The translations under genes were made by a program, and so were the position numbers. The notes below the pieces were generated by a model. The model ran no database searches, had not been told where the DNA came from, and worked only from the letters and a program-made list of their open reading frames with translations. Below are positions 185 through 62,070 of a DNA stretch of 64,000 bases, one piece after another (position 1 is the stretch's first letter; each line of letters starts with the position of its first letter). This DNA comes from Thermoplasmata archaeon (GTDB lineage: Archaea; Thermoplasmatota; Thermoplasmata; UBA10834): assembly GCA_038852315.1 (NCBI GenBank), contig JAWCKF010000007.1, positions 1,148-65,147 on the forward strand, in the 5' to 3' direction.

Positions 185-565
185 TCACAGCACGAATGAG
201 CCAACGAGGTACGGGCCCAGAAGAGTTGTGGCCAGGACAAGAATCCATATCCGCCCTTTCAGAATGTTGTAGTCCTCGAGCAGGACCTGCCATGACCTCT
301 TGGCCACCAGACGCCCGAACCCGAACTCGAAAGCTAATGTGAGCACGAGCCAGATGGCGCCCATCGAAAACAGGTCTCCAGCCGAGGGGCACAAGTCCGT
401 GTTCGCGAGGAAGATGTAAGTTGCGAGCAGGATCAGCGACGAGATGGTGATCGAGCTTATCGCGCGGCCCCAGAGTTCGCCGAGACTCGGAACGAGTACG
501 CTTTGTCGGAACAGACCGTTTAGGACTGCGATGACAGCGAACATGGACCAAACGGCGAGGGACAA
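185..565 (-). CDS. small integral membrane protein (about 4 TM), function unknown
   Basis: 126-aa ORF made mostly of helix-length hydrophobic runs (FAVIAVLNGLF, ISSLILLATYIFL, GAIWLVLTLAFEFGF, IWILVLATTLLGPYLVGSFVL). The overlapping ORF 144..551 is an Arg/Pro-rich shadow frame. Confidence 0.55.
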   Translation of the reverse strand: MSLAVWSMFAVIAVLNGLFRQSVLVPSLGELWGRAISSITISSLILLATYIFLANTDLCPSAGDLFSMGAIWLVLTLAFEFGFGRLVAKRSWQVLLEDYNILKGRIWILVLATTLLGPYLVGSFVL

Positions 566-589: not shown

Positions 590-970
590 TCATCTCCCTC
601 CAATGAACTGCTTTCTGGTCGCAACGAGATACGCTGAGATTATCGCCGCTGGCAAGATGCCCATCGCCGCCGAGGACTGCACGGTGGCGAAAGCCCACAG
701 ATCGAACCCTATGGTGTAGACGCTCACGGCTAGTGTGCCCCAAAAACCCCACGGTCGACACTTGTACATGCCCGGCAGCATCACCAGCCCCGAGATTCCT
801 ATTGCCAAGAAGCTGTACACGACGAGAGCTTCGACTGCCGCCGACTGCTCCGATTCGAACTCCATGTCTCCGCTCAAGCTCGCGTAGAAGACAGCCAGAC
901 GGGCTGCATAGTAGACAGCCGCAAACAGCGTGACGAGGGTCAGAACGATCTTCTTGCGTTCCACAGGCAA
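590..970 (-). CDS. small integral membrane protein, function unknown
   Basis: 126-aa ORF with several TM-like segments (IVLTLVTLFAAVYYAARLAVFY, ALVVYSFLAIGISGLVML, WGTLAVSVYTIGFDLWAF, GILPAAIISAYLV). The competing frames are Arg/Gly-rich shadows. Confidence 0.55.
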   Translation of the reverse strand: MPVERKKIVLTLVTLFAAVYYAARLAVFYASLSGDMEFESEQSAAVEALVVYSFLAIGISGLVMLPGMYKCRPWGFWGTLAVSVYTIGFDLWAFATVQSSAAMGILPAAIISAYLVATRKQFIGGR

Positions 971-1111: not shown

Positions 1112-1627
1112 TCATTTCTGAGGAACAGACCCGAAAGTCCTGGCTATCGTCTCCTTCGCGAAGATGCGGGCCTTCTCAATACGAGCCTCGTCAGGCTGGC
1201 CTCTGCTGTTGTCTCTTTTGGCGTCGCTCCTCAGCCTCTTGCTCGGAGAGATCCTCATGATGAACTTGACGCCCTTTGCCAGCTCTCCCTGGCAGTCGAA
1301 GAAGCCGACCAGCTCAGCGCCCGCAGCCGCACGCCTGAACTTCTCCATCCATTCCTGGACCTCTGGCTCCTGCTCAGGGGCGGCATGGGTGACGAACAGA
1401 GCGACCTTCCTTCCATCCCTGCAAAGCTTTCTCAGATATCCCTCTGCCTTCTTGTCTGGGCCGTAGCCGTGTGTGGGGAAGCCGAGGAAGGAGATGTCAT
1501 ATCCGCTGAGATCTTCTACCTCCGCTATTGGTTTAATGTCCTTGTCACAGGGTATCTCACCGTATATCGCCTCGGCAATCCTCTTGGTGTTGCCGGTCGA
1601 CGACATGTAGGCAACAAGAGCCTTCAT
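1112..1627 (-). CDS. flavodoxin-family protein
   Basis: N-terminus MKALVAYMSSTGNTKRIAEAIYGEI is the classic flavodoxin FMN phosphate-binding loop (S/T-x-T-G-x-T). Size is 171 aa. Confidence 0.8.
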   Translation of the reverse strand: MKALVAYMSSTGNTKRIAEAIYGEIPCDKDIKPIAEVEDLSGYDISFLGFPTHGYGPDKKAEGYLRKLCRDGRKVALFVTHAAPEQEPEVQEWMEKFRRAAAGAELVGFFDCQGELAKGVKFIMRISPSKRLRSDAKRDNSRGQPDEARIEKARIFAKETIARTFGSVPQK

Positions 1628-1830: not shown

Positions 1831-2601
1831 TCAGAACCTGTACGTTCCGCCGAATACCAGCCATGCAAGGGTCGACTTCGCTGTCAAGCTTAGGATTATG
1901 TACACCCTCTCGCCGAACAGGTAGTCTGCCCACCTTCCCTTGGCCCTGTACTGCAGCACCATGTTGATCGCGAAGACGTTGAAGAACGCCGCCGTGATCG
2001 GGAATATGAAGTACACGAAGGTCGGCACGGACTCTGCGCTCTGCAACACAGCCCCGAAGAAGTAGATGCCGATCACAATCCAGGGCACGATGCCCGCGAA
2101 GCAGCCGAATATGTAGGCGGTCCAGTCGGTCTTCTTCGTGGTCTGGTTGTGCAACTCCATCATCCATCCGAAGAGGTTCATGGTCGCATTCAGTGCAAAT
2201 ATGAGCATCAGCGTCGACAACTCGAACATCCCGACCTGCATAGCTATCAGGACTATCATTATGGACGAGCTGACGGCGTACTCCGCCCACCTGGCCGGGT
2301 TTATGTGCTGCTTGAGATGCTCAACATACCATCTGTACCCGAAAGTAGAGAGCGAAAAGTGCGCTATGGCAGAGACGAAAAGAAACGAGGCGACGAGCGG
2401 CCCCAGCGATATCGTGGCGATCTGGTCTTTGGCGAACTGCGGTAGTCCGCCCTCGAATCCCGTTATGAAATCGGTGTACACCGGCGCCTTGCCAGGCGGA
2501 CTGAGCCAGAGCATGAGGCCGCCCTGAATCAGGTGCAGGAATCCCATTGCCAGGTTGAAGTTCTTCAGTTTCTTGAACTTGAGTTCTTCTCCAGAAGACA
2601 T
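1831..2601 (-). CDS. heliorhodopsin (7-TM retinal protein, inverted topology family)
   Basis: Full-length resemblance to heliorhodopsin 48C12 as I recall it: LKNFNLAMGFLHLIQ, RWAEYAVSSSIMIVLIA, NATMNLFGWMME, FGCFAGIVPWIVIGIY, GERVYIILSLTAKSTLAW. The TM7 Lys is K242. Confidence 0.9.
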   Translation of the reverse strand: MSSGEELKFKKLKNFNLAMGFLHLIQGGLMLWLSPPGKAPVYTDFITGFEGGLPQFAKDQIATISLGPLVASFLFVSAIAHFSLSTFGYRWYVEHLKQHINPARWAEYAVSSSIMIVLIAMQVGMFELSTLMLIFALNATMNLFGWMMELHNQTTKKTDWTAYIFGCFAGIVPWIVIGIYFFGAVLQSAESVPTFVYFIFPITAAFFNVFAINMVLQYRAKGRWADYLFGERVYIILSLTAKSTLAWLVFGGTYRF

Positions 2602-2682
2602 CGCCGCTCCTCCTGAGGACGGGAGGGGATTTCTCTTAGGGGCTTATTAATGAATCCCCGAAAGGCTCTCGCAGTCCAAAGG

Positions 2683-3899: not shown

Positions 3900-4132
3900 T
3901 CTATCACAATCTCTGAAAAACCACTTCCCAACATCTATCCTACAGCCAGTACCAGAGGTTCAGGTCTACGAAGTGTCGGTTGCACTTGACCTGTGAACTT
4001 CTCATCTGCGTTCAGCAACGGTTTTCAGACCGGTGGAAACCACTGTTCGAAGCTCAACGAGCGAGAGGCTTCGCTAAGGCGTCAAGAAGCAGAGTAGTTA
4101 AGCGCGGTCCTCGCATTACCTGCGCGAACTCG

Positions 4133-6763
4133 ATGCGGTCCATGATGGTCAAGCTAGAAAGCGCGGACGGTTTGGGAGTAGATCAGGTTGGCGGGAAAGC
4201 AGCGAACCTCGCAATTCTCTCGAAGGCCGGCATGAAGGTCCCGGGAGGAATCGTCGTAGTGACAGGTGCCTATGACGCATACTTGGAAAGGCTTGGCCTC
4301 AAAGAGAAGATATCCGATAGTCTCTCAAAGCTCGCCAGGCTCGATGGAGGAGGCCTTAGTGCCTGCTCCTCCGAGATCAGGGAATGGTTCGAGGCGGAAC
4401 CCACGGACCCGGAGCTGTCTGAGAGCATCATCCAGGAGCTACGCAGGTGCAATCCAGAGACTCTCTGGGCGGTGAGGTCCTCGGCCGTGTCCGAGGATCT
4501 GCCTAAGGCATCGTTCGCCGGCCAGCAGGACTCCTATCTTTGCATACCAGCCGACGAAGTCCCAACCTATGTGAGAAAGTGCTGGGCATCCTACTGGAAC
4601 GAGAGGGCTATCGCATACAGATGTGATGCCGACATCGACCACTTCTCCGGCGGCATCGCCGTCGTTGTGCAGGAGATGGTGCCTTCTGACTGCGCGGGCA
4701 TCATGTTCACTGCCGACCCCGTTAGTGGGACGGAGGGGCGGATCATCATCGAATCTACGTGGGGCCTGGGCGAGAGCATAGCATCAGGAATGGTCACACC
4801 GGACAGGTTCATAGTCGACAGGAAAGCTCTGGAGATCGTTGATAGGGCCTTATCCTCGAAGACGAGAGCGGTCTATCTGCAGAACGGCCGGAAGAGCGTT
4901 GTTGAGCTGGATGCGGCGAAGGGGTTGTCACCGTCGCTTGACGATGAGCAGCTGAGGCGCGTCGCCCAGGCTGGTCTTCGCATAGAACGGCTTTTCGGAA
5001 GGCCCCAGGACATAGAGTGGGCGATAGCTGACGGGGTCTTGTACATACTGCAGTCCCGCCCGATAACCGTCCAGGTACGAACCGACGGGGCACTGTGGAC
5101 GAGGGCATACGGCGACGAGTACTGGGCAGATGCAACATCACCGCTTTTCTTCTCGCTGCTGGGCGAGTATCTGACGGAGTACGTCAACCATGAGGGCGCG
5201 AGGATAATGGGCTACAGGGAGCTGACCGGGACGGAGCTTCTCAAGCTCCACAAGTCTCACGTGTACTTCAACACAGAGGTGCTGGAGAAGATCTTCACAT
5301 ACAATCCAAGGTTCTCGAGGACAAAGGAGCTGTTGAGCTACTTCCCCGAGCGGGATCAGGTTAGGATAGCGACGGCCCCGACGAAGATCTTCGGCAGGAT
5401 GATTGCGGAACTCAGGGTGGCGCTGCTGGATCCCGACGGAATGATCTTCCGGACCGACAAGGCTTACAAGGCCTGGGCCGAGCGGTTCCTCTGCTTCCTG
5501 GAGGACTTCGATTCCCTGGACTTGAGGAAGGCGTCGGACCAGCAGTTGCGAGATGTCTTCATCCAGCTGGAGAGGGCATACCTCAAGCACTACAGGCTGA
5601 TCAGGTATGGGATGGTGACGCACAGCATCGGCACGAACCTCATCCTGAGGAAGTGGCTCACTGACTGGTTGGGAGACGCCTCCGGGACACTGTATTCCAA
5701 GCTCGTCTCCGGCCTGCCTGAAAACAAGACGGTTGAGACGAACGCGGCAATCGCACGGCTCGCTGATGCCGCAAGGGATAACCAGGTGGTCAAGACCGCG
5801 CTCCTGTCAATGCCCGCAGACGACTTCCTCGACCGGCTGAACTCGGATGGAGACTTCAAGGGATTCGCAGCCGAGTTCAAGCGGTTCCTGGCGCAGTTCG
5901 GACACAGGTCGCACACGCGGGAGATCCTCTTCCCCCGATGGGCAGACGAACCCAGAATGGTCGTGGAGATTCTCAGGACTCTCGTGGCAGGGTCTGATAG
6001 ACTCAATCTGGGAGCAGTGGAGGAACAAAGAGCCTCAGAGAGGAAGAGGACGGAAGAAGAGGTAATGCGGAAGATAGGAGGAATGAGGCACGGATTCCTG
6101 AGGAAGCTCGTCTTCAGAACAGTCCTACGATACGCGCAGACGTATCTTGCCTTCAGAGAGAACCAGAGGTTCTATCTCGACCACCAGATCGCCAGGCAGA
6201 GGCGCATCTTCATGGAGTACGGCAGGAGGCTGGCTGAGAGAGGCGTCCTGACCTCGCCGGACGATGTATTCTTCCTCTCCAAGGACGAGATATTCGATGT
6301 AATCGGGAACCCTCGCAAAGACATAGCGACGGCGGTGAGAAGGAGGAGAGAGGAGTTCGAGAGATACAGGAATTACCTCCCGGCGAAGTTCCTGCGCGGG
6401 ACGGCTGAGTTCGAGGATGAGGCCTTCGCATTGGACGCCAAGCTGACGCTCACAGGGACTGCCGCCAGCCCGGGCACCTTCACGGGGTACGCAAGAGTGG
6501 TAAGATCCATCGATTACCTAAAGGATGTGAGGCAGGGCGAGGTCCTGGTCGCCTTGAACACAGACCCTGGATGGACCGCGGTGTTCCCCAAGCTCGGTGG
6601 GGTGGTAACGGAGACGGGTGGTATCCTCTCGCACGGAGCGGTGGTTGCAAGGGAGTACGGGATACCCGCGGTGACTGCCGTGAAGAACGCGACCGGCGTG
6701 TTAAAGACAGGACAGCGCATTATCGTCGACGGAAACTCGGGAGTTGTGCGGATTGTCCAGTAG
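4133..6763 (+). CDS. PEP-utilising enzyme with rifampicin-phosphotransferase-like architecture (ATP-grasp N-domain, unknown central domain, C-terminal phosphohistidine swivel domain)
   Basis: The N-terminus VDQVGGKAANLAILSKAGMKVPGG...VRSSAVSEDLPKASFAGQQDS is a pyruvate phosphate dikinase-type ATP-binding domain. The extreme C-terminus LVALNTDPGWTAVFPKLGGVVTETGGILSHGAVVAREYGIPAV is a PEP-utilizers mobile domain. No TIM-barrel PEP/pyruvate domain follows. Start is taken at MRSMMVKLES. Confidence 0.85.
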   Translation: MRSMMVKLESADGLGVDQVGGKAANLAILSKAGMKVPGGIVVVTGAYDAYLERLGLKEKISDSLSKLARLDGGGLSACSSEIREWFEAEPTDPELSESIIQELRRCNPETLWAVRSSAVSEDLPKASFAGQQDSYLCIPADEVPTYVRKCWASYWNERAIAYRCDADIDHFSGGIAVVVQEMVPSDCAGIMFTADPVSGTEGRIIIESTWGLGESIASGMVTPDRFIVDRKALEIVDRALSSKTRAVYLQNGRKSVVELDAAKGLSPSLDDEQLRRVAQAGLRIERLFGRPQDIEWAIADGVLYILQSRPITVQVRTDGALWTRAYGDEYWADATSPLFFSLLGEYLTEYVNHEGARIMGYRELTGTELLKLHKSHVYFNTEVLEKIFTYNPRFSRTKELLSYFPERDQVRIATAPTKIFGRMIAELRVALLDPDGMIFRTDKAYKAWAERFLCFLEDFDSLDLRKASDQQLRDVFIQLERAYLKHYRLIRYGMVTHSIGTNLILRKWLTDWLGDASGTLYSKLVSGLPENKTVETNAAIARLADAARDNQVVKTALLSMPADDFLDRLNSDGDFKGFAAEFKRFLAQFGHRSHTREILFPRWADEPRMVVEILRTLVAGSDRLNLGAVEEQRASERKRTEEEVMRKIGGMRHGFLRKLVFRTVLRYAQTYLAFRENQRFYLDHQIARQRRIFMEYGRRLAERGVLTSPDDVFFLSKDEIFDVIGNPRKDIATAVRRRREEFERYRNYLPAKFLRGTAEFEDEAFALDAKLTLTGTAASPGTFTGYARVVRSIDYLKDVRQGEVLVALNTDPGWTAVFPKLGGVVTETGGILSHGAVVAREYGIPAVTAVKNATGVLKTGQRIIVDGNSGVVRIVQ

Positions 6764-7685
6764 ACCCAGCGTCCCCACGACAGACTCACTCCATCCCTTC
6801 GGGACACACATCGACTGGAACGAGAGCTTCTACTTCAACTTCTACGACAGAGCTGCAGACATCGCCGGTTTCATGAGGATAGGGTTGAAACCGAACAAGA
6901 ACGAGAAGAGCATGCTCTGCTTCCTGATGATGCCTGATGGAACCTCGATGGGCGTCAGGGAAGCGGGGCCAGTCGATACGACAGACCTCCGAATCGGGGG
7001 GCTGTCCTTGGTAAGGGTCAAACCGGACAAGGAATGGCTGCTGGAGTGGTCCGGTCCCATGAAGCACGCTCTCGGAACTCAGACCGTGCGCAGGAACGTT
7101 AACTTCAAACTGAGGTACACCGCGCTGAACGAGGTGTTCGACTACAGGCAGTGCGTGAACGGTACGTCCGAAGAGGTTGCGAGCGTCGCAGCCGCCGAGC
7201 ACACGGAGCAGTTCGGACGAGTCTCGGGGGAACTCACCATTGACGGGCAGGCACTCAAGATAGACGCCCTTGGCGAGAGGGACCATTCTTGGGGAGTGAG
7301 GGACTGGGTCGCGCCGTCGATGTGGATATGGCTGTCCTGCCAGTTCTCGGAGAGGGTGGCCTTCAACATAACCAAGCTCTTCGTGGGCCATGAAGTGGTA
7401 GACGCGGGATTCATCCACGTGGACGGGGAGAATCGACCCATAACGAAGGCCGCCATCGCCACCGTCTACGACGACGGTGGCGGTCCGAAATCCATCGCCA
7501 TCGTGCTTCAGGAGAGGGGCGGACGGACCCACGAGGTAACCGCGGAGGCCCTGAGGGAGAAGAAGCTGCCGTTCAGCACGGAGGCCGAGAAGCATCTCTC
7601 GATCATGCACGAGGCGCTGGCGCGCTATCGGATGGGGGATATGCTCGGGTACGGCATAGCCGAGTACCTCGTCCGCGTGAGATGA
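6744..7685 (+). CDS. hypothetical protein, coupled to the PEP-utilising enzyme; possible beta-barrel (AttH/CrtC-like) fold
   Basis: 313-aa ORF overlapping the upstream stop by 20 nt (TTG start; there is no upstream ATG). It has coherent GC3-rich codon usage. The motif GERDHSWGVRDW is one I associate with uncharacterised AttH-like proteins, but that memory is weak. Confidence 0.6.
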   Translation: MCGLSSRPSVPTTDSLHPFGTHIDWNESFYFNFYDRAADIAGFMRIGLKPNKNEKSMLCFLMMPDGTSMGVREAGPVDTTDLRIGGLSLVRVKPDKEWLLEWSGPMKHALGTQTVRRNVNFKLRYTALNEVFDYRQCVNGTSEEVASVAAAEHTEQFGRVSGELTIDGQALKIDALGERDHSWGVRDWVAPSMWIWLSCQFSERVAFNITKLFVGHEVVDAGFIHVDGENRPITKAAIATVYDDGGGPKSIAIVLQERGGRTHEVTAEALREKKLPFSTEAEKHLSIMHEALARYRMGDMLGYGIAEYLVRVR

Positions 7686-8540: not shown

Positions 8541-11297
8541 TCACCCATCCTCTTTGACGGACCTTAGACAGTCACGTGCGACCGAAAGCGCTAGCCTGTC
8601 TCCGACACGCTCAGCAAGCACTGCTGCCTGCTCATAGTGCTCCGCCGCTTCTGAATATGCCCCCTTCTTCTCAAGCACGGTCCCCAACCTCATGTTTGCA
8701 GCTATCAGCCCCTCAGTGTTGCCAGTCGTCCGCAGTATCTCGAGCGCTTCCCGCGACCGCTGAGCTGCCTCGTCCAGGCGGCCAGTTTCTTCCTCCACCA
8801 CAGACTGCGTGAGCTTCGAATCCGCTATCAGAACCGGATCGCCCATCGCCTCCGCCATTGCCGTGTATCTTGCGAGCTCCTTCCTAGCCAGCTTAAGGTC
8901 GCCTGACGCTCGTGCAATCGAAACTATGGTCGACGACAGTTCGAGATCACCCACGTCGAAGGATTGGCCCTTCTCGAACAGTCCCCTCCTCTTCCTGAGC
9001 TCTGGTCTGGTGAGGGCCTTCTCGCACATCTCAACCGCCTCAGCATGCCTGCCGAGGGAGGAGAGCAACAGGGCGGATTTCGCCAGCATGCGCTTGCACT
9101 CCTCGAGTTCTCCCGCCTTCCTGAAGGCCTCGGACGATTCTTGATAGAGGGTCGCGGAATCTGAGGTGCGGCCCAGCAGGCCCTCCAGCCTGGCCAGGTT
9201 CTCCAACCCCCTGGCTTCTCCGCCGAAGTCTCTAACGGCGTGCGCGAGTCTCACGGATTCCTTCATCTTCCGTTCCGCGTCCGCCAGCCTGCCCTGGTCT
9301 AGTTCGACGAGTGCGATGTTGTTAAGACAGGCGGCCTGCAACGCCCTTCTCTCCGCCCTGGTCGCCAGCTCAAGCGCCTTGGCATAGACGCTCAGGGCGC
9401 CCGGCATATCTCCCCGCTGTTTATGGATCCCTCCCATGTGGAGGAGTTCTCTGATCTGTCCATCTATGTCTTCGGACCCCTGATAGAGCCTGAGCGCGTG
9501 CTCATGCCCCGCCATGGCCTCAGAGAGATGCTGGAGGTGCGTGTGAAGCTTGGCAATCGTCTCCACCACCAGGGCGCGTCTCTCCGCGTCGGCATCTGGC
9601 CTCAGTAGTGAAAGGCTGCTTTCGAGATCCGCAAGAGCCTGATCGTGCATGCCCAAATCGTCCCTCAGCTGACCCCTCAGGAAGAGCAGCTCCGCCCTCG
9701 CCTCATCCGGAACGGCCGACAGATCTAGCTTGGAAAGCACTGCCAGAGTCTCGTTCGGAAACTCCCTTGCGAGATCTGAAGCGTTGTCCAGGGCAACCCT
9801 AGCCGCACCTGCCCAGTCTCCAGCCTCTGACACGTGGTACAATCTCTCCAGAACCCACTCAACCCCCTCCTTGCGCGAGCAGTACCGCGCGGCATGCTCA
9901 TGCAGCGCTCTCAGCTCGGCTGCTGACGTGTGCGAAAGGAAGAATTCCCTGATCATGTCATGCGTGGCGATTCCGTCCTCCTGCTCCACGACCAGAGCAC
10001 GGGACCGCAGCGCCGAAATGACTTCGTAGTCTACGCCCTCGAAGGCGTCGAATTGTACTGGGTGGCGGAACACCGACAGCAGCGCCAGAGCTCGCTTCTC
10101 CGCAGCTCCGAGCGTAGAGAACACTTCCTTCTCGATGAACGATGAGATGTCTCCCTTCGTATGACCGAGAATGCCGCCAGCCATAATGGTGATAAGAAGC
10201 GGATGGCCCCCGCCAGCCTGCACTATGCGACCAGCCTCCTTGGCGTTGATGCTGCTGGCCAACTTCCATGCGGAATCCCTGTCGAGTTCCTTCACCTCGA
10301 TGCTGAGGTTCCCGACGGACGCGGGCGAGAACAAGCTGGGGACCGACCTAGATATGAGCACGACCTTTGAAGTGCCTGAGCGTTTCGCGGCCTCCATCAG
10401 CAGTGAGAGCATCACAGACGGCTCCGGCCGAGGTTTCTGGATGTCATCGAGAAAGAAGAGCACGCGGTTATCCGACATGTCAGAGACTAACGCGGATAGT
10501 ACATCTGCTGCGCCCGCGCCCCTTCTTATAGCTGTCTGGAGAGAGGACCTTCCAGTTGCGACCAGGAAATCCGACAGGACGCCCGCGAACGATTGCTCAG
10601 TGTCCCATTCGTGAAAGGAATACCACAAGATCGAGTATTTGCCTGCGAGGGAATCGGCCAACTTCGATGCGAGAGTGCTCTTTCCTATGCCTGGCATACC
10701 CCAGATGAGGACATTGGACACCGAACCGCCTTCCAGGGCCTCCCTGAGCGAGCTCAATTCTGCCTCTCTTCCGAAGAACCTCACGACTTTAGGCTTCCCG
10801 TAAGCTTTCAAGATGAAAGTGCTGGGCGCGGATGTCTCGGATTCGGCCTCTGAAAATGCGGATGATGACACCACGTCGGCAGCTCGTGCGACTTCCACGA
10901 CCTCTGAGAAACCCACGCTCCTGCCCAGCTGCGACGTCAACTTCTTTACGGCTTCATCGACTGAGAGTTCCTGAGCCGTACCTGAGTGCTCCAACACGAT
11001 CCTTCGCTTCGCGAGGTCCGCCCTGACAGAGCCTGCTGCGGCCCTGCCCTTCTCAGTCAGGAAATACGCCCTCCTTCGCTTGGGAGCCCCGCGCACATGC
11101 GCGAGCCTATCGAAGACTAGGCCTTCTGCCTCGAGGGACGAGAGCGCCCTCGATGCGTTGAAGACCTGAATGCCGAGCCTCTGAGCTATCCCTTCTTGGC
11201 TGACACCCAAAGGGACGTCGGGCTCGTCCCTGTACCTATCGAACTCTGCGAGATGGAGCAATATGCGCTCATTCTGCGAGACCGAGAGCTTGGGCAT
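8541..11297 (-). CDS. wHTH - STAND/AAA P-loop NTPase - TPR repeat regulator
   Basis: N-terminal MarR/TrmB-like wHTH (GVSQEGIAQRLGIQVFNASRALSSLEAEGLV). Walker A is LIWGMPGIGKSTLA and Walker B is VLFFLDDIQ. The C-terminal roughly 430 aa consists of TPR-like A/L/E-rich repeats. Confidence 0.85.
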   Translation of the reverse strand: MPKLSVSQNERILLHLAEFDRYRDEPDVPLGVSQEGIAQRLGIQVFNASRALSSLEAEGLVFDRLAHVRGAPKRRRAYFLTEKGRAAAGSVRADLAKRRIVLEHSGTAQELSVDEAVKKLTSQLGRSVGFSEVVEVARAADVVSSSAFSEAESETSAPSTFILKAYGKPKVVRFFGREAELSSLREALEGGSVSNVLIWGMPGIGKSTLASKLADSLAGKYSILWYSFHEWDTEQSFAGVLSDFLVATGRSSLQTAIRRGAGAADVLSALVSDMSDNRVLFFLDDIQKPRPEPSVMLSLLMEAAKRSGTSKVVLISRSVPSLFSPASVGNLSIEVKELDRDSAWKLASSINAKEAGRIVQAGGGHPLLITIMAGGILGHTKGDISSFIEKEVFSTLGAAEKRALALLSVFRHPVQFDAFEGVDYEVISALRSRALVVEQEDGIATHDMIREFFLSHTSAAELRALHEHAARYCSRKEGVEWVLERLYHVSEAGDWAGAARVALDNASDLAREFPNETLAVLSKLDLSAVPDEARAELLFLRGQLRDDLGMHDQALADLESSLSLLRPDADAERRALVVETIAKLHTHLQHLSEAMAGHEHALRLYQGSEDIDGQIRELLHMGGIHKQRGDMPGALSVYAKALELATRAERRALQAACLNNIALVELDQGRLADAERKMKESVRLAHAVRDFGGEARGLENLARLEGLLGRTSDSATLYQESSEAFRKAGELEECKRMLAKSALLLSSLGRHAEAVEMCEKALTRPELRKRRGLFEKGQSFDVGDLELSSTIVSIARASGDLKLARKELARYTAMAEAMGDPVLIADSKLTQSVVEEETGRLDEAAQRSREALEILRTTGNTEGLIAANMRLGTVLEKKGAYSEAAEHYEQAAVLAERVGDRLALSVARDCLRSVKEDG

Positions 11298-11455: not shown

Positions 11456-12958
11456 ATGATCGCAATAAAAGGAACCACAGGCTTTGGAGCGGTTCTAGTC
11501 GCTGTGCTCATGTTCGCAGGGGCGGTCGCGCTCCCCGCGGGCGTGTCAGCTGGCGAGGAGAACCTCACAGACGAACTGCAGACTGAGACCGGGCCGACGA
11601 GCATCCTAGGCGGAGGGGACCACTTCTTTGTGAAGTTCGGAGACGATGCCGCCTTCGGAATAGTCTGGGGCACTGAGAGCAATCCGAACAACGTCTACTT
11701 TGTGGCTGTGAAGGCGAGGTACCTCGGATACGCCCAGGTCTACGATGACAGCGGCAACCTCGTCGTAAGCAACCACTCAGTGAAGATAGCGACGCTATAC
11801 GCCGTCAAGCTGTCGGACATCCTTGAGTTCAATGATTCGGATGGCTCCGGGGTGCTCCAATACGTGAGGACTTACCAGGGCGGTCAGTTCACGGGCGGGT
11901 ACATGCACCTCGAGGACATCTACAAGAAGGTTGATCTGAACACCTCATGGACACGGTCCGAGGTGGTGGAGGACTCGACCGACGACTCGCGGACCTGGAC
12001 ATTTGACCTGACCGCGTCGAACCTGCCGTATGTGCCCTTGGACAACTATACGGATTCCGCTGGCGACGGAGTCCTCAACAGCCTCAAGCTGACATTCCAC
12101 CTCGAGGCAAGGATGATGCAGATGGACAACATATCCATACCCCAGTGGCGAGTGACCGTCGCCAAGGGCATGATGGGCAACCAGTGGTGGTTCACTGGGG
12201 TAGCTCCCATGGAGCCAAAGGTTGTCTCGGGTGATGTCATCACATACCATGTGAAGTGGGACCAGCTCATAGAAGGCTGGGACTATGACGCAGCCAACTC
12301 CGACCCGAGGCTGCTCATGGAGCTCGAAGCCATCGTCGGCAACTACATCCCGCCCGCGCTCGCTCAGGCCATGAACATGCACATGATGATGTACACCGCC
12401 ATGATCCGGGCCATGAACGAGAACGGCCGGATGATATGCACGACGAACACGGGCGAGACGACCGTTAATGAGACTTCTGGGCCTTTCGGCTCGCCGAGCC
12501 CGCTCACGTCCCCAGCTCTGACCTTCGGTGGTGAGCGGACCAGGATAGGCAGGCTCGAGTGGGTATCGAACGTGACCGTGGACGGGGTGCCCGAGATGAA
12601 TCAGGTGCGCGCGCAAGTCATGGCAGGCGTGCCTGTCGTCGCCGTCGGGGCGAACGGCGCTCTGTTCTCGGGCTTCGCGGCCGTCGCCGGCCTGACGTTC
12701 CCGGGCGGAGGGTTGATAGACCACGACCCGACCTTCTCCTCTGACGCTCTAGTGAACATCGGGGAGGCTACCGGAGGGCAGCTGCCATTGGGGCTCCTCG
12801 GATTCGTGGCAATCGGCCTCGCGGCGCTGGTGGTGATAGTTATCGTCCTGGTCCTAAGGGGCGGGAGGAAGCCGGGCGAGACCGCGCAACAGACCTACGA
12901 CAGGAGCGGCACCACTGATCAGCGGGTTGACTGGACGAAGTACTACGGCAAGAAGTAG
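11456..12958 (+). CDS. secreted / membrane-anchored surface protein, function unknown
   Basis: N-terminal signal/TM segment (GFGAVLVAVLMFAGAVALPAGVSAG), a large extracytoplasmic body with many N-x-S/T sequons, and a C-terminal TM segment (LGLLGFVAIGLAALVVIVIVLVL) followed by RGGRK. Confidence 0.75.
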   Translation: MIAIKGTTGFGAVLVAVLMFAGAVALPAGVSAGEENLTDELQTETGPTSILGGGDHFFVKFGDDAAFGIVWGTESNPNNVYFVAVKARYLGYAQVYDDSGNLVVSNHSVKIATLYAVKLSDILEFNDSDGSGVLQYVRTYQGGQFTGGYMHLEDIYKKVDLNTSWTRSEVVEDSTDDSRTWTFDLTASNLPYVPLDNYTDSAGDGVLNSLKLTFHLEARMMQMDNISIPQWRVTVAKGMMGNQWWFTGVAPMEPKVVSGDVITYHVKWDQLIEGWDYDAANSDPRLLMELEAIVGNYIPPALAQAMNMHMMMYTAMIRAMNENGRMICTTNTGETTVNETSGPFGSPSPLTSPALTFGGERTRIGRLEWVSNVTVDGVPEMNQVRAQVMAGVPVVAVGANGALFSGFAAVAGLTFPGGGLIDHDPTFSSDALVNIGEATGGQLPLGLLGFVAIGLAALVVIVIVLVLRGGRKPGETAQQTYDRSGTTDQRVDWTKYYGKK

Positions 12959-13008
12959 TCGTCCGCCAGATCGAACCTCAAAACCCATTCCATCCTTCTT
13001 TTCCTGCC

Positions 13009-17101: not shown

Positions 17102-17902
17102 TCAGGCCTTGAACACGCGCCACTTGATCTCGTACCCGCTGGTCTTCTTGAGGTCTGCGACAGCAGCGAGCAGTCTGTCCACTGACTCTCGCGTCCCACA
17201 GAACGCGACGTCGACGCCCTTGCAGAGTGCGCTCATGGTTGATTCGACCGGAGCGTGTATCGTGAAGAGCTCTCCGCTGGCCTTCATCAGGAGCGCCGCC
17301 CCAGTCGTGTCCCCTGCGACCAACAAGCCGGGGGACATCGAGTCGATCCTTTCACGCGCTCTGCGGATGTCTGCGGTCTTGGAACCCCCGTCCACCTCCG
17401 ATGGGGCCTCAAGGACAAGGAGCTCACCCAGCTCAAGGTCCACTATCCCCTCCAGATGGCCAACGAAAACGTCGTCCCCTTCTTCGCAATCCTCGAGCGC
17501 GACTCCCGTTGAGGACGACTTCATGCCAGGGTACGCCATCAGCATCCCATCCTCCATGACGAGGCCCACCTTCTGGCCCTTCTTAATCCTCTTGCCCGCG
17601 ATCGCGACGCACCTGTCTATCACGCTTATCCTCCGAAGCACGGAGTCGACCTGCTCCTTCAGGCCGACAAAGTGCTCCTGGGCCATCTGCATTCCCTTCC
17701 TCGTCGGCCTGAGGCTACCATTCCGCTCGCTGAGCAAGCCCTCCCTCTTCATCTCACTGACGTACTGGCTCACAGCCTGGACGGTTATCCCCAGTGAAGA
17801 CGCGATCTCGCGCAGCCTCGCGGATGGCCTCATCAGGAGCTCAGCCAGTATCAGCATCTCCGTGTTTCTCCTGAGGTCCCTGAGATGGTGCCCGCCCTTC
17901 AT
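17102..17902 (-). CDS. wHTH transcriptional regulator with C-terminal uncharacterised domain
   Basis: ILAELLMRPSARLREIASSLGITVQAVSQYVSEMKREGLL is a MarR/ArsR-like wHTH. The ATG overlaps the stop of the upstream ABC ATPase (ATGA). Confidence 0.7.
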   Translation of the reverse strand: MKGGHHLRDLRRNTEMLILAELLMRPSARLREIASSLGITVQAVSQYVSEMKREGLLSERNGSLRPTRKGMQMAQEHFVGLKEQVDSVLRRISVIDRCVAIAGKRIKKGQKVGLVMEDGMLMAYPGMKSSSTGVALEDCEEGDDVFVGHLEGIVDLELGELLVLEAPSEVDGGSKTADIRRARERIDSMSPGLLVAGDTTGAALLMKASGELFTIHAPVESTMSALCKGVDVAFCGTRESVDRLLAAVADLKKTSGYEIKWRVFKA

Positions 17903-19158
17903 CCGTTCCTTCTCCCTGCGAGTTCGTCGAGCAGCTCCCCTATGCCCTTCACGGGAATCGCGCCTGAGCTAATCAACCCCCTCATTATCTCGTCGGCCCT
18001 GCCACCGACGAAGTCTATTGCCTTGCCAGGATCGGGGGAGAGTATTAGAACTCGCTTCCCAGCCGCGACCGCCTCCTTTGCCGCCTCCAGGTTCCTTATG
18101 TTCCCTGGTCCGACCGGGAACGGTGATACGACGACGACGCTCGAATCAGATATCATCTGAAGGTTCTGCCTGTGCGCCTCATCGCTGATGGGCGCGAACG
18201 GCACCTCCGAGACGGTCGGTATCCTCAGGTCAGCCGCATTCTCGCTATCGGAATCGAGCACGTTTATCACGCCCGCGGAGACGGAGTATCCGTGGTCGAT
18301 GAGCGCCTTCATGACAGGGCCACCTGTGCCTCCCCCGCACAGAACATGCACTCGCGTCCCGTGTCTGCGCGACGGCGAAGCAGACGACCTGGGAAGGACA
18401 TAGACTGCGTCCGAAAAGGGATCCTTCCTGACGACCACCTCTACACCATACACGCTCTCGATGATATCCGGCGTGAGCACTTCTTTGGGGGTGCCGATGG
18501 CCTCTACCCTCCCCCGGTTGAGCATGACTATCCTGTCGCAGTATCTCGCTGCAAGGTTGACGTCGTGCAACACTGAAATGATGGAGAGATCCTCATCGCG
18601 GTTCAGCCCCTTGATGAGGTCCATTATCTCGAACTGGCCGTTTATGTCGAGGTAGACCGTTGGCTCGTCTAAGAGGAGGGCCTTGGGCTGCTGCGCTATG
18701 GCCCGCGCTACGATGACCCTCTGCCGCTCGCCCCCGCTGAGCGTGAAGAACGGGCGCGAGGCGAGCTGCCATGTGTTTGTGCGCCTCATGGCTTCGGCCA
18801 CGACGGCGGCGTCCCGTCTCGTCATGCCCGCCAACCTGCTGGAGACGTGCGGCATCCTGCCCATCATCACGATGTCATACGCCGTGAATGTGAAGTCGGT
18901 GGCTGAGGTCTGGGGCACCACAGCGAAGGTCCTAGCCAACTCTGAAGGGCTCAGCGATGATATGGGGCGGCCGTCAACCCTCACAGCATCTGCCTCCACG
19001 GGGAGGTAGTTCATGAGGCACCTGAGCAGGGTGGTCTTGCCGGAACCGTTCGGGCCCATCAAGCCCAAGAACTCTCCCTCCGCGACCTCGAAACTGACGC
19101 CATCAAGCACGCGCTTCTCGCCGAAGGAGAACGACAGGTCATCGACGCTCAGCCTCAA
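17899..19158 (-). CDS. ABC transporter ATP-binding protein (FepC/BtuD-like) with about 170-aa extra C-terminal domain
   Basis: Walker A is GPNGSGKTTLL, the signature is LSGGERQRV and Walker B is LLLDEPTVYLD. The start is taken at TTG 19158, which overlaps the permease stop and gives MRLSVDDLSFSF. An in-frame ATG at 19218 is the alternative. Confidence 0.85.
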   Translation of the reverse strand: MRLSVDDLSFSFGEKRVLDGVSFEVAEGEFLGLMGPNGSGKTTLLRCLMNYLPVEADAVRVDGRPISSLSPSELARTFAVVPQTSATDFTFTAYDIVMMGRMPHVSSRLAGMTRRDAAVVAEAMRRTNTWQLASRPFFTLSGGERQRVIVARAIAQQPKALLLDEPTVYLDINGQFEIMDLIKGLNRDEDLSIISVLHDVNLAARYCDRIVMLNRGRVEAIGTPKEVLTPDIIESVYGVEVVVRKDPFSDAVYVLPRSSASPSRRHGTRVHVLCGGGTGGPVMKALIDHGYSVSAGVINVLDSDSENAADLRIPTVSEVPFAPISDEAHRQNLQMISDSSVVVVSPFPVGPGNIRNLEAAKEAVAAGKRVLILSPDPGKAIDFVGGRADEIMRGLISSGAIPVKGIGELLDELAGRRNG

Positions 19159-20249
19159 GTCCTCTCGCCCCCGGTCCTGCTCCGCCTGAGCAAGTAGATG
19201 AAGAACGGCCCGCCACACATCGCGGTGATGATGCCCACGGGAAGTTCCGTGGGGGCGACGACGGTCCTCGCAGCCGAATCAGCCAGTATCAGGAATATCG
19301 CGCCAGTCACGGTCGCCGACGGAACCAGCATCCTGTGGTCGGCGCCAACTACCAGCCTGACCATGTGCGGGACTATCAGCCCGACGAACCCGATGACGCC
19401 CGTGAAGGCGACTGCTGCTGCAGTCATCACGGCTGCGGCGACCAGCATGTCCGTCTTGAGCCGCTCCGGATCGGTCCCGAGGTTGTGTGCTGTCTCCTCA
19501 CCCAGCAGGAGGGCGTTGAGGTCCCTTCCGAAGAGGAACACGACCGTCGCGCCTATGACCACGACGATGAAGAGCACTGCCACGGCCGGCCATGTAGAGA
19601 GCGAGAGGCTCCCGAGGAGCCAGAAGACCAGCCTGTGGTACTCCTGCCGCGCGTAATAGATCATGAACGAAACTATCGCGCCGAGGAAGGCTGCGACTGC
19701 GACGCCCGACAACAGGAGGGTGTCCACATAGACCTTACCGCTGACGGTTCCGAGCCTGTACACGATGAACACCGTCACCAGGGCCGTGGCGAATGCGAAA
19801 ACCGGGCTTATGAACGAGCCTATGATGGCGACACCTGCGAGGCCCATGAGGCTCGCGGTTACGGCACCTAGAGAAGCCCCCGTCGAGACGCCGACGATGA
19901 ACGGGTCCGCCATCGGGTTCCTGAACACAGCTTGCATCGCCGTCCCAGCGCACGCGAGCGCGGCGCCCACGAGGCCGGCGAGCAAGACGCGCGGTATCCG
20001 CACATCCCAGAACACACGCTCATAGTAGTCTGGCCGCTCCCCAGGCAACCTGAATATCACGCGGAGAGCATCATCGAAGGATACCCTATCAGGCTCTCCC
20101 GGGCCTATCGGGCCCACTGTGCCGACCATCATCGAGAAGATGGCCGTGCCCGCCAGACACACGAGCAGCGCCCCGAGTATCAACCTGCGTCTGCGCATCA
20201 GGAGAGGGAAGTCGACGCCCCCGTCCTCCCTTCGGCTCAGTTGTATCAC
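19155..20249 (-). CDS. FecCD/BtuC-family ABC permease
   Basis: 364 aa with about 9-10 TM segments and typical FecCD motifs (IPRVLLAGLVGAALA..., FIVGVSTGASLGA, GVIGFVGLIVPH, GGPFFIYLL). Confidence 0.9.
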   Translation of the reverse strand: MIQLSRREDGGVDFPLLMRRRRLILGALLVCLAGTAIFSMMVGTVGPIGPGEPDRVSFDDALRVIFRLPGERPDYYERVFWDVRIPRVLLAGLVGAALACAGTAMQAVFRNPMADPFIVGVSTGASLGAVTASLMGLAGVAIIGSFISPVFAFATALVTVFIVYRLGTVSGKVYVDTLLLSGVAVAAFLGAIVSFMIYYARQEYHRLVFWLLGSLSLSTWPAVAVLFIVVVIGATVVFLFGRDLNALLLGEETAHNLGTDPERLKTDMLVAAAVMTAAAVAFTGVIGFVGLIVPHMVRLVVGADHRMLVPSATVTGAIFLILADSAARTVVAPTELPVGIITAMCGGPFFIYLLRRSRTGGERT

Positions 20250-30947: not shown

Positions 30948-31361
30948 TCACGGATTCTTTGCCGAATCCTGCGCCTTGAAGTGCAATGCAACAGAGTTGA
31001 TGCAGTAGCGGAGGACCGTCGGCTCAGGACCGTCGCCGAAGACGTGTCCGAGATGGCCCCCACAACTGGCACACAGTACCTCAGTACGAGTCATGAACAG
31101 GCTCCTGTCGACCTTTTCCGTGACGCTGTCGTCGGAGATGGTGGCGTAGAAACTTGGCCAGCCGGACCCTGAGTCGAACTTCGCCTCTGAGTCGAACAGC
31201 TCGTTGCCGCAGGCCGCGCACACATATACGCCCTTCCTCTTGTTGTTCAGCAGCTTGCCCGTGAAGGGCCTTTCAGTGCCCTTGGCCCGCAGCACAGCAT
31301 ACTCCTCCGGACTGAGCTGCGCCCTCCACTCCTCATCGCTCTTCTCGACCCTGCGCCTCAT
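30948..31361 (-). CDS. msrB: peptide-methionine (R)-S-oxide reductase
   Basis: [27 protein letters not shown] ... [16 protein letters not shown]...RYCINS is the MsrB signature. Confidence 0.9.
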
Positions 31362-31370
31362 CTGACTACC

Positions 31371-31850
31371 TCACCGGAACCCGCACGATGACAGCCTGTG
31401 CTTCTCGTAGTATCTCTGATGATACTCCTCTGCCCTGTAGAACTCATCCGCAGGGAGTATCTCAGTCACGATCTTCCTTGAGCCCAACCTTCCGCTCTCC
31501 TCGAGCCTCCTCTTGGATTCGAGAGCGATCCTGCGCTGCTTCTCGTCATGGTAGAATATGGCCGACCTGTACTGTGTCCCCAAGTCCGGACCCTGTCTGT
31601 TCTTCGTCGTCGGATCGTGGATGCCCCAGAAGACTTCCAGGAGCTGTTCGTAGGACACCTCTTCCGGATCGAACTCCAGTTGCACGGCCTCTGCGTGCCC
31701 AGTCTTGTCAGTGCACACATCCTCATACGTCGGATTCCTGGTGTGCCCTCCCGTGTATCCGACCACGGTGGATTTCACTCCCTTGACCTTCCTGAAATCT
31801 GCTTCGACATGCCAGAAGCAGCCAGCTGCGAACGTCGCTTTCTCTGTCAT
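31371..31850 (-). CDS. msrA: peptide-methionine (S)-S-oxide reductase
   Basis: [15 protein letters not shown]...GYTGG...[24 protein letters not shown] is the MsrA GCFW signature. Confidence 0.9.
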
Positions 31851-31989: not shown

Positions 31990-32640
31990 ATGCACAAGGT
32001 CGTCACTGTCGACATGGAGAAGGACATACTCGCGGAGAACAGGAGAATCGCGAACGACAACAGGGCGAGACTTGACAGGAGCCGGGTTGTTGCGTTCGAC
32101 TTCCTGGGTGCGATCGGTTCCGGGAAGACGCTCATAATAGAGAAGCTGATTGACATGCTGAAGGCCAGGGGGAAGAGGGTGGGGGCGATAGCCGGGGATG
32201 TTTCCGGAGACGACGACTATCAGAGGTTCGTCTCCCACGGGATACCGGCAGCAAACATCAACACGGGCAAGGAGTGCCACCTGGATGCTCATCTGGTGGA
32301 GCACGCACTGGATGACCTTCCCTTGGAAGAGCTCGACTACCTGTTCATCGAGAACGTCGGGAACCTCGTGTGTCCGGTGGACTTTCCTGTAGGCTCGCAC
32401 AAGCGAGTCGTCGTCATAAGCGTAACCGAAGGGGACGACATGGTGAGGAAGCACCCGTCGATATTCGCGTTCTCCGACGTCATAGTCATCAACAAGGTCG
32501 ACCTGGCGGACGCGATGGAGGTCGACCCTAGGATACTCGAACGCGATGCGCGCAGAATCAACCCAGGCGCGAGGATAGTCATGACGGATGCTAGGCACGG
32601 CACGGGGTTGGACGAGCTCGCGAGCGCGCTCGGGCTGTGA
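31990..32640 (+). CDS. hypB: hydrogenase nickel incorporation GTPase HypB
   Basis: GAIGSGKT P-loop, ENVGNLVCP and INKVDL motifs. Confidence 0.9.
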   Translation: MHKVVTVDMEKDILAENRRIANDNRARLDRSRVVAFDFLGAIGSGKTLIIEKLIDMLKARGKRVGAIAGDVSGDDDYQRFVSHGIPAANINTGKECHLDAHLVEHALDDLPLEELDYLFIENVGNLVCPVDFPVGSHKRVVVISVTEGDDMVRKHPSIFAFSDVIVINKVDLADAMEVDPRILERDARRINPGARIVMTDARHGTGLDELASALGL

Positions 32641-32674
32641 AGTGGGCGACAGGAGAAAGCGAAAGGAGCTTCAG

Positions 32675-34885: not shown

Positions 34886-34940
34886 TCCTGCTAGGGTCTG
34901 GCCAAAGTCTTATAACACACCCCTGCATACATTCGGGCCG

Positions 34941-35168
34941 ATGTGCCTCGCCGTGCCAGCCCTGGTCAAGTCGATTGACGGCCAAACCGCCACCGTCGAC
35001 TACGGTGGGCTCACCAGGAAGGCCAACATATCGCTGGTGGAGGCCAAGGTCGGCGACTACGTCATAGTCCATGCGGGCTACGCGATAGAAGTGCTGGACA
35101 GGGAGGAAGCGGAGAAAACCCTGGAGCTGTTCAGGGAGATGCTGGACCTCGACAGCGCCGGAGCGTAG
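34941..35168 (+). CDS. hypC: hydrogenase assembly chaperone HypC
   Basis: MCLAVPALV N-terminus (essential Cys2), 75 aa. Confidence 0.9.
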   Translation: MCLAVPALVKSIDGQTATVDYGGLTRKANISLVEAKVGDYVIVHAGYAIEVLDREEAEKTLELFREMLDLDSAGA

Positions 35169-35172
35169 TCCG

Positions 35173-35550
35173 ATGCACGAGTTCTCAGTAATGAGCCAGA
35201 TCGTCGACAGCATACTCGATGAGGCTGAGAAGCGGGGCGCTAAGAGGATCGAGCAGGTCGACCTCGATATAGGTGAGTACACGATGCTGGGAGAAGAGCA
35301 GCTGAGATTCGCCTACGAGGTCCTCTCGAAAGACACGATTCTAGAGGGCTCCACACTCCAGGTGGGCCGCATCCTTGGCAGGGTAAGATGCCCTTCGTGC
35401 GGATTCGAGGGGCCCGTCCCAGTGGCCACCGACGCACCCCATAGGATCACGCCTGTGCTGGAATGCCCCGTGTGCAGGTCGCCTTCGGAGATCATCGAGG
35501 GGAGGGAGTGCGTCATAAGGAGGGTCAGGATGGTGGTCCCGGATGTTTAG
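35173..35550 (+). CDS. hypA: hydrogenase nickel insertion protein HypA
   Basis: MHEFSVM N-terminus (MHE Ni site) and a CPSCG...CPVC zinc site. Confidence 0.9.
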   Translation: MHEFSVMSQIVDSILDEAEKRGAKRIEQVDLDIGEYTMLGEEQLRFAYEVLSKDTILEGSTLQVGRILGRVRCPSCGFEGPVPVATDAPHRITPVLECPVCRSPSEIIEGRECVIRRVRMVVPDV

Positions 35551-40100: not shown

Positions 40101-40154
40101 ATGATCGAGGCGGCTCTGAGGCGGGAGCTCCCGAAGGAGGAGGCAAAGGCATGA
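37104..40154 (+). CDS. hdrA: fused double HdrA-like flavoprotein (QmoA-like N-module + canonical HdrA core), module 1
   Basis: Two dinucleotide-binding sites ([16 protein letters not shown] and [17 protein letters not shown]), [19 protein letters not shown], several CxxCxxCxxxCP ferredoxin motifs, the HdrA N-domain motif [14 protein letters not shown] and [23 protein letters not shown] precedes the start. Confidence 0.9.
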
Positions 40155-41749: not shown

Positions 41750-41772
41750 CGGACGGGAGGACTGAGGCAGAG

Positions 41773-42153: not shown

Positions 42154-42229
42154 CAACGACAAAACCCTTAGGAATGCTGCTCGAGGAGAATGATTGCGAG
42201 GGCACGAGGAACCGAGAGGAGGTCTGAGA

Positions 42230-43525: not shown

Positions 43526-43530
43526 TCTTG

Positions 43531-45396: not shown

Positions 45397-45399
45397 CCG

Positions 45400-49732: not shown

Positions 49733-49733
49733 G

Positions 49734-50750: not shown

Positions 50751-50756
50751 GCACCA

Positions 50757-52271: not shown

Positions 52272-52341
52272 AGGCGTGCCGGGGGCCAGGGCCCTTCGAG
52301 TGTCTTTCCAGTCACGCTTAACTTCCCAGAGTCAGTTATCC

Positions 52342-53892: not shown

Positions 53893-54006
53893 GTGCAGCC
53901 CCGGCCGCCCATTCGTAGCCAATGGCCGGTAATAACGCTTTTGGTGGCCAGGAACGGGCGCCATGGTGGCGGAAGGGATAGATAGGGATCTGTGGTTCCC
54001 GAATTC

Positions 54007-62000: not shown

Positions 62001-62070
62001 GTACTTTCTCCCTGGAGCAGGAGCCACCAAAGCTTTATGTAAACCCTTTCTTTTTGGTTGGAGCCACAAT

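Follow-up and report, generated by a model that had tools for sequence, protein, structure and literature searches.

Gene organisation of the heliorhodopsin locus

The gene organisation and likely function of a heliorhodopsin (HeR) gene were analysed in a 64,000-nucleotide (nt) stretch of DNA from a Thermoplasmata archaeon, referred to here as the window. The HeR coding sequence (CDS) occupies 1831..2601 on the reverse strand, with its ATG at 2601..2599 and its TGA at 1833..1831, and the open reading frame (ORF) listing and translation give a protein of 256 amino acids (aa). Directly upstream lies the CDS of a SOUL-family protein of 172 aa (Pfam PF04832; 2683..3201, reverse strand), which starts with GTG. 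Read along the HeR strand, the order is SOUL gene, 81-nt spacer, HeR, 203-nt spacer, Flavodoxin_3 gene and two small membrane ORFs.

The SOUL and HeR genes share a strand, and the 81-nt gap between them contains a TATA-like box and a Shine-Dalgarno-like motif, with no clear terminator. The box, ATTAATAA (2644..2651, reverse strand), precedes the HeR ATG by about 47 nt and was recognised by its resemblance to the consensus, while the motif AGGAGG (2609..2614, reverse strand) was read from the sequence 7 nt before the ATG. Since both elements sit in the SOUL-HeR spacer, HeR may have its own archaeal promoter. A scan of the locus for bacterial sigma-70 promoters and intrinsic terminators was uninformative for an archaeon, the counts being at or below the shuffle expectation.

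Identification of the heliorhodopsin

The original prediction, made from the sequence alone, had taken 1831..2601 for a seven-transmembrane heliorhodopsin and had proposed a profile search as the check. The matches to the heliorhodopsin family were far over the curated thresholds. The Pfam profile PF18761 was matched with E = 3.1e-93 and 312 bits (cutoff 26.7) over profile positions 1-241 of 242, and the NCBIfam equivalog NF038020, 'heliorhodopsin HeR', with 324.8 bits (cutoff 100). Together with the fold described below, these results confirm that the gene is a genuine, intact heliorhodopsin. The prediction had also set five peptides beside segments of 48C12, and these agree with the real 48C12 chain in the PDB alignment. 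The best match among solved structures is TaHeR (PDB 6is6/7u55; E = 1e-75, 53% identity), followed by 48C12 (E = 3e-50, 43% identity). By sequence comparison the closest characterised relative is TaHeR, rather than 48C12.

The identical HeR protein is present on the metagenome-assembled genome (MAG) contigs JAWACB010000008.1 and JAVYMD010000019.1 and in one Logan assembly. The assembly and run accessions gave no hits in the literature. The nearest named relatives are Thermoplasmata or Thermoplasmatota MAG proteins annotated 'heliorhodopsin HeR'. The heliorhodopsin family has thousands of members, and the window HeR is a further member of this known family, closest to TaHeR; as stated, the finding is ordinary, because annotation pipelines already recognise such genes.

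Conservation of the functional residues

The alignment set the window HeR against 48C12, TaHeR and a diverse sample of 30 full-length HeRs drawn from species-representative genomes. The comparison covered the positions that a 2025 preprint on the Cv06 structure gives for four regions: Schiff base, hydrophilic cavity, E149 and lateral fenestration. The residues were compatible with function at all 26 of the 26 positions, which include H23, S77, H81, R104, W105, E107, S111, M141, E149, Y163, C167, G170, F207, N208, A211, M214, E231, I235, S238, A241 and K242. The family has 56 columns with at least 95% conservation; the window HeR keeps 55 of them and departs only at Q122.

The retinal Schiff-base lysine is Lys242 in transmembrane helix G, at the codon 1876..1878 that the prediction had assigned to it; the alignment places it in TM7, opposite K241 of 48C12 and K238 of TaHeR, and lysine occupies this column in 30/30 of the diverse HeRs. 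The counterion glutamate is likewise retained, as Glu107 in helix C (2281..2283; 48C12 E107, TaHeR E108). Both conserved histidines that had been expected are present: His23 of the Schiff-base cavity (2533..2535; H23 in both 48C12 and TaHeR) and the second cavity histidine, His81 (2359..2361; 48C12 H80, TaHeR H82). All these codons are read on the reverse strand. The serine trio of 48C12 (76/111/237) corresponds to S77, S111 and S238.

Two lineage-specific residues were noted. The polar T203 (codon 1993..1995, reverse strand) lies in the retinal pocket at the position of L202 in 48C12 and I199 in TaHeR, which nearly all HeRs fill with Leu or Ile; among 45 close relatives this column is Leu in 42 and Thr in one, the nearest (88% identity). 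The other is Q122 (codon 2236..2238, reverse strand), in a column where at least 95% of the family have Leu. Judged from the residues, the spectrum or the structure might be affected by either substitution. At the natural colour-tuning sites of HeRs, of which Kim et al. (PMC7807009) described two, the window HeR has M214 and A241, the same as TaHeR. From this agreement a pigment near 540-550 nm would be expected, with a possible shift due to T203.

The residues were also considered with regard to ion transport. In TaHeR, ion passage is reported to be blocked by the extracellular hydrophobic residues Y109, A113, M116, F203 and F206 (PMC9529153), and the counterparts in the window HeR are Y108, S112, M115, F207 and F210. 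Because these counterparts are present, no pumping would be expected. One subfamily of HeRs is reported to transport protons (PMC9448325), and the window HeR could by analogy move ions in a light-driven or light-gated manner, as the viral V2HeR3 does. Such a role is extremely unlikely, as the protein falls within the TaHeR clade of archaea (53% identity), keeps the ion-blocking hydrophobic residues and carries the fenestration motif that is absent from the transporting viral subfamily (10.1101/2025.11.27.691015).

The fenestration residues bear on another proposal, the 'two-antenna' model, by which the HeR would mainly harvest light with an external xanthophyll as second antenna and would not signal. 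All the residues that define the proposed carotenoid-binding fenestration are present, namely the aromatic pair Y163/F207, the small C167/A211, G170 and N208 (10.1101/2025.11.27.691015). The model of the preprint is, however, based on docking and sequence motifs, and the use of the energy in a non-transporter is left unstated; it is moreover compatible with a sensor role, and the 64-kb window contains no carotenoid genes. Light harvesting as the main function is therefore considered unlikely.

Fold, membrane topology and selection

The structure of the window HeR was modelled with AlphaFold2 on 46 homologues, giving a predicted local distance difference test score (pLDDT) of 85.7. The model has seven helices and the long beta-hairpin typical of HeRs in the extracellular A-B loop (strands 38-50 and 53-65). 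Foldseek superposed it on TaHeR (6is6) with a TM-score of 0.85-0.87 and a root-mean-square deviation of 2.6 A, and on 48C12 with a TM-score of about 0.8, compared with 0.45-0.65 at 8-18% identity for type-1 rhodopsins. The loops contain 10 lysine and arginine residues on the N-terminal side versus 3 on the other side; the predicted topology is therefore the inverted, N-in one that defines the family, with a cytoplasmic N-terminus.

The ratio of nonsynonymous to synonymous substitution rates (dN/dS) was calculated pairwise against seven relatives and ranged from 0.05 to 0.25, with a value of 0.05 at dS 0.86 for the nearest relative. These low ratios indicate that the HeR gene is under purifying selection.

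The SOUL protein upstream of HeR

The protein encoded upstream matches PF04832 with 130 bits (cutoff 27) over profile positions 2-172 of 173, and a profile of four SOUL sequences searched against the PDB found human HEBP2 with E = 6e-10. It is soluble, with no signal peptide and no transmembrane segment. Its relatives are named 'SOUL family heme-binding protein' by the sources; to our knowledge, no conserved axial-ligand motif is required in the SOUL/HEBP family. Gene calls on the matching contigs likewise give 172 aa, and homologues of 173-176 aa begin at the domain. A longer reading as a 249-aa ORF from 3432, with a long N-terminal extension, was rejected on account of these homologues and gene calls. 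The dN/dS values of 0.11-0.17 point to purifying selection on this gene as well.

A full-text literature search for heliorhodopsin with 'SOUL' or 'heme-binding protein' returned nothing relevant, and the pairing is unreported there. The ten recurrent groups of HeR neighbours described by Cho 2024 (PMC11109279) include ABC transporters and do not include SOUL. Bulzu 2021 (PMC8612252) discusses glyoxylases, Zn-ribbon and MORN fusions and never mentions heme or SOUL. Eukaryotic SOUL proteins occur in carotenoid-rich eyespots and plastoglobules (PMC4678213, PMC7006542), which is a loose parallel only.

Recurrence of SOUL beside HeR

The conservation of the neighbourhood was analysed from both genes. 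Starting from HeR, every neighbour in the window was compared with 80 HeR loci of species-representative genomes (24 archaeal, 56 bacterial). SOUL was the only window neighbour that recurred across them; it stood alongside HeR in 3/24 archaeal loci and in 0/56 bacterial loci. In L012 and L013 HeR is followed by SOUL with a 36-nt gap, and in L046 the two genes are divergent. Starting from SOUL, HeR lay directly downstream in 6/32 metagenome contigs whose SOUL had at least 39% identity, and in 0/48 of those with a more distant SOUL. Taken in rank order on contigs of at least 8 kb, five of the six top SOUL relatives had HeR within 1.2 kb; the sequence of the sixth contig stops at an MsrA gene beside SOUL. 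A truncated ORF upstream of SOUL in L176 (1-462) had been considered as a HeR and proved to be MsrA. Among four close HeR relatives (77-88% identity) the order SOUL-HeR was found in one, the 77% relative (P0015).

Altogether, SOUL was found within 1.2 kb of HeR in the window and in L012, L013, L046, L084, L085, L107/108, L110, L112, L170/171, L172, L173, L174, L175 and L177. The HeR-linked SOUL genes encode 172-190 aa and lie on Thermoplasmatota contigs. Four layouts were seen, with SOUL before HeR, HeR before SOUL, one gene between HeR and a following SOUL, or the two genes divergent. The outer flanks vary and comprise PPDK-like, peptidase M28, PALP, ABC-2, MFS/MsrA/nitroreductase, and UvdE with alpha/beta-hydrolase genes. 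In a crude neighbour-joining tree of HeRs, the SOUL-linked members fall on at least five branches. If a genome holds some 2000 genes, two single-copy genes would be neighbours by chance in roughly 0.1% of genomes; the observed association exceeds this by far, with counts that are inflated by shared ancestry. It is also partial and clearly not obligatory.

Several features of the SOUL-linked loci deserve mention. The two most divergent, L110 and L112, have a gene for the UV-damage endonuclease UvdE upstream (3881-4804 and 2129-3028, respectively), a 45-nt gap between SOUL and HeR, and Abhydrolase_5 directly after a HeR of 276 aa. In L108 (4956-5620), and also in L107, the HeR-adjacent SOUL has an in-frame stop, 'SGRTN*DKV', on two independent metagenome contigs; pseudogenisation, recoding or an assembly error common to both could account for it. 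MsrA accompanies the SOUL/HeR pair in L175 (4633-5112) and L177 (4600-5079) and stands beside SOUL in L176 (1-462), and nitroreductase, MFS or ABC-2 transporter genes also flank the pair in several relatives. These neighbours suggest an oxidative-damage theme. In the window itself MsrA/MsrB (30948..31850, reverse strand) lies about 28 kb from HeR and is hence unlinked.

Pairs of ABC_tran and ABC2_membrane genes were observed beside archaeal-clade HeRs in L166, L168, L169, L170, L175, L112, L011 and L050. This recurrence extends the published bacterial 'ABC transporter' group of HeR neighbours to Thermoplasmatota.

The HeR could accordingly be a light regulator whose partner is not SOUL, being instead an ABC-2 type transporter, as in OcHeR-OmrDE, or a histidine-kinase pathway; the adjacency of SOUL would then be inherited synteny in a light or oxidative-stress neighbourhood. 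The ABC-2 pairs near HeRs of the same clade are in line with this, as are the ABC transporters among the groups of Cho 2024 (PMC11109279) and the histidine kinases that Bulzu 2021 (PMC8612252) reports near HeRs, those of Thermoplasmatota among them. MsrA and nitroreductase accompany the SOUL/HeR pair too. In the window, however, the nearest ABC ATPase is about 15 kb from HeR (17899..19218) and the multi-PAS kinase about 53 kb, and across the loci SOUL stays by HeR while the outer flanks change. A partner other than SOUL is thus a serious possibility that falls short of even chances.

Host and retinal supply

The host is an uncultured Thermoplasmata-type archaeon and fits the rule that HeRs occur in monoderm or archaeal hosts. 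The archaeal markers ribosomal protein L37e and LSM are present on a matching contig. Rfam found a tRNA of about 103 nt at 62071..62174 (forward strand) that ARAGORN misses by default and, with introns allowed, resolves into a 76-nt tRNA with a 28-nt intron; intron-bearing tRNAs are typical of archaea. This tRNA overlaps the 3' part of the longest ORF at 61083..62174 (reverse strand), and for this reason the formamidase-like ORF there is probably shorter. No signal of horizontal transfer emerged, the GC content being uniform across the window (55-63%).

By Pfam content, the window encodes aminotransferases, CorA, MscS, MsrA/MsrB, HypF/A/D/E, several HdrA-like flavoproteins, MvhD, a [NiFe] hydrogenase, a multi-PAS kinase and NAD synthase. 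An Hdr/Mvh-type cluster at 37104..52818 (forward strand) has a very high GC content at third codon positions (0.86-0.92). It contains two HdrA-like fusion proteins of about 1015 aa each (37104..40154 and 46233..49274) and an MvhD/HdrB-C-like gene at about 40151..41749, all on the forward strand; the apparently gene-free stretch at 40.1-41.8 kb corresponds to this last gene. Two more HdrA-like genes, MvhD/FlpD, the small and large subunits of a [NiFe] hydrogenase and a HycI protease complete the cluster. HypF/A/D (32588..36634) lie upstream of it and HypE (52843..53964, reverse strand) downstream. The local Hdr/Mvh hydrogenase gene content suggests an anaerobic host.

To search for genes of retinal and carotenoid synthesis, every ORF of 90 aa or more was scanned with Pfam; these ORFs cover 93% of the window. 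No SQS_PSY, lycopene cyclase, BCD/Blh, full-length phytoene desaturase or carotenoid oxygenase was found in the 64 kb by Pfam. The ORFs without a Pfam match were rescanned at a permissive threshold of E <= 1, again with no retinal or carotenoid gene. The Amino_oxidase matches represent only the N-terminal Rossmann motif of HdrA-like proteins. The prediction that no retinal-synthesis gene is visible in the 64 kb therefore holds at standard and permissive thresholds. The formation of retinal from carotene requires O2. With no synthesis genes nearby in a scan limited to the 64-kb window, and with local gene content that points to an anaerobe, the host probably scavenges retinal from its environment. 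The absence of retinal genes near HeR in an apparently anaerobic, hydrogenase-bearing archaeon bears on the question of the chromophore source.

The same observations could be explained if the HeR gene were a chromophore-less relic, with no light function, in an anaerobe unable to make retinal: the 64 kb lack retinal and carotenoid genes, the Hdr/Mvh context suggests anaerobiosis, and O2 is needed to make retinal from carotene. Against this stand the strong purifying selection (dN/dS of 0.05 at dS 0.86 to the nearest relative), the conservation of Lys242 and the whole retinal pocket, and the identical protein in three independent assemblies, which make a relic very unlikely.

Functional interpretation

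The best explanation, in which we have high confidence, is that 1831..2601 is a functional HeR gene whose product is most likely a slow-cycling light sensor or regulator that uses scavenged retinal, with SOUL as the leading candidate partner. The opsin would be inserted with its N-terminus in and would bind all-trans retinal from the environment at Lys242; Glu107 would serve as the counterion, and the cavity of His23 and His81 would adjoin the Schiff base. From its homology to TaHeR and 48C12, the protein would act as a slow-cycling sensor or regulator and not as an ion pump. A light-induced change on its cytoplasmic face would alter the activity of a bound partner protein, and the 172-aa SOUL protein is the leading candidate for such a partner or accessory.

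This proposal is in accordance with the literature on the family. HeRs have a slow photocycle, those studied by the time of one report do not pump, and AbHeR binds and regulates glutamine synthetase (GS), the product of its operon neighbour (PMC9529153). Bacterial HeRs have been shown to bind and regulate products of genes next to their own, namely glutamine synthetase, a photolyase and an ABC transporter (PMC9529153, PMC9769723, PMC11109279), and a viral HeR to transport protons (PMC9448325). The original prediction had called the physiological role of heliorhodopsins largely unresolved. In view of the bacterial and viral roles just listed, this is no longer true in full; for archaeal HeRs no demonstrated physiological role was found in the literature.

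Two modes of action can be envisaged for SOUL. It could be a cytoplasmic effector whose binding of a tetrapyrrole or other hydrophobic ligand is switched by light, possibly in a response to photo-oxidative stress that also involves MsrA, nitroreductase and ABC-2 exporters. It could also be a carrier that brings the scavenged chromophore to the opsin. That the linkage reflects a direct functional partnership is nevertheless only a tentative proposal, and the idea that this particular small soluble SOUL subfamily is a dedicated HeR accessory or partner in Thermoplasmatota is put forward with the same reserve.

Several observations weigh against this functional interpretation. The HeR relatives of 84-88% identity carry AsnC-like, FMN_red or ABC-2 transporter genes upstream and not SOUL, and most of the archaeal species-level HeR loci are without an adjacent SOUL. 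No SOUL-HeR fusion was present among the 120 SOUL relatives listed, nor among the 120 HeR relatives listed. HeR's putative TATA-like box and Shine-Dalgarno motif may allow it to be transcribed separately, leaving co-transcription with SOUL not established. The SOUL protein is basic (isoelectric point 9.7) and the cytoplasmic face of HeR has a net charge of +5; a charge-complementary docking in the style of AbHeR-GS was considered and found no support, and simple electrostatic docking is not suggested by the calculated charges. Finally, the spectral properties might be altered by T203, a polar residue that is rare at this place in the retinal pocket.

The value of the window HeR lies in its context, since the bacterial HeR functions solved so far were all traced via an adjacent gene. 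The recurring SOUL-HeR pair in Thermoplasmatota is the element that goes beyond what was known, and it gives archaeal HeRs a candidate partner that can be tested. If true, the partnership would provide a first functional lead for HeRs of archaea, among them the clade to which the structural model TaHeR belongs.

Other features of the window

The Flavodoxin_3-type CDS of 171 aa (1112..1627, reverse strand) lies 203 nt downstream of HeR and has its own TTATAT box. It is kept beside HeR only in the closest relatives, with the same order in L172, and is absent at other HeR loci. The two small membrane ORFs (185..565 and 590..970, reverse strand) are located downstream of it. On a matching MAG contig (L001) the run of HeR, flavodoxin and small ORFs extends just past the left edge of the window into a gene for a DUF438/hemerythrin/PAS protein (12573-13781), a putative O2 or redox sensor, and a class-III aminotransferase.

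Divergent from the SOUL-HeR unit is the gene of a rifampicin-phosphotransferase-like protein of about 873-927 aa with PPDK_N, Rph_4th and PEP-utilizers domains (3980..6763, forward strand), followed by a DUF7064 protein (6744..7685, forward strand). This arrangement is repeated in L172. Further on are a STAND-type NTPase of 918 aa with AAA_16/NB-ARC and TPR repeats (8541..11297, reverse strand) and, next to it, a 500-aa ORF with no Pfam match (11456..12958, forward strand). The flavodoxin, both small membrane ORFs, a Spo0M-like ORF, the PPDK/Rph-like enzyme, DUF7064 and the STAND NTPase were each rejected as general HeR partners, since they accompany HeR only on same-species contigs or in L172.

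In the distal part, a 1084-aa sensor with five PAS domains, one GAF domain and HATPase_c (55943..59197, reverse strand) lies 53 kb from HeR; it is of the kinase type that Bulzu 2021 (PMC8612252) reports near HeRs. A DUF2238 match at 54620..55252 (reverse strand) is sub-threshold (E = 0.005, below the gathering score), and a NAD synthase gene is located at 60252..61070 (forward strand). Both families occur in the HeR-neighbour groups of Cho 2024 (PMC11109279) and are here more than 50 kb from HeR. The single short tandem-repeat array of the window (29 nt, 47722-47750) falls within the Hdr/Mvh cluster, with none near HeR.

Comparison with known systems

TaHeR, from the Thermoplasmatales archaeon SG8-52-1 (PDB 6IS6, 7U55, 7CLJ), has the archaeal phylum and the fold in common with the window HeR. 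The Schiff-base region is identical (the lysine, the glutamate, two histidines and three serines), and the two proteins are alike in E150/E149, E227/E231, methionine at the Q213 site, alanine at the A240 site and the aromatic tyrosine of the fenestration. They differ in that Y104, T139 and I199 of TaHeR are replaced by A103 (cavity), N138 and T203 (retinal pocket). The window HeR also has Q122 where the family has Leu, and its E-F region is 5 residues longer. The founding member 48C12 (PDB 6SU3, 6UH3) has nearly the same numbering (E107, H23, E149); it is bacterial (actinobacterial), and its F79, F103 and Q213 correspond to A80, A103 and M214.

The window SOUL shares the full-length SOUL domain with the SOUL/HEBP family (human HEBP2/SOUL 3R8J, 4AYZ; HEBP1/p22HBP 2GOV), although the eukaryotic proteins are only about 25-30% similar to it. 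The archaeal subfamily may bind heme, a porphyrin or some other hydrophobic ligand. Linkage to a rhodopsin gene has not been described for any SOUL protein.

The HeR-partner pairs established by experiment are bacterial, whereas the candidate pair of the window is archaeal and has SOUL as the neighbour. The cytoplasmic F-G loop of the window HeR is rich in lysine and arginine (R219, K221, R223), as is the GS-binding patch of AbHeR. Like the AbHeR-glutamine synthetase, TfHeR-photolyase and OcHeR-OmrDE pairs, the SOUL-HeR pair joins the opsin to an adjoining gene that recurs beside it in related genomes.

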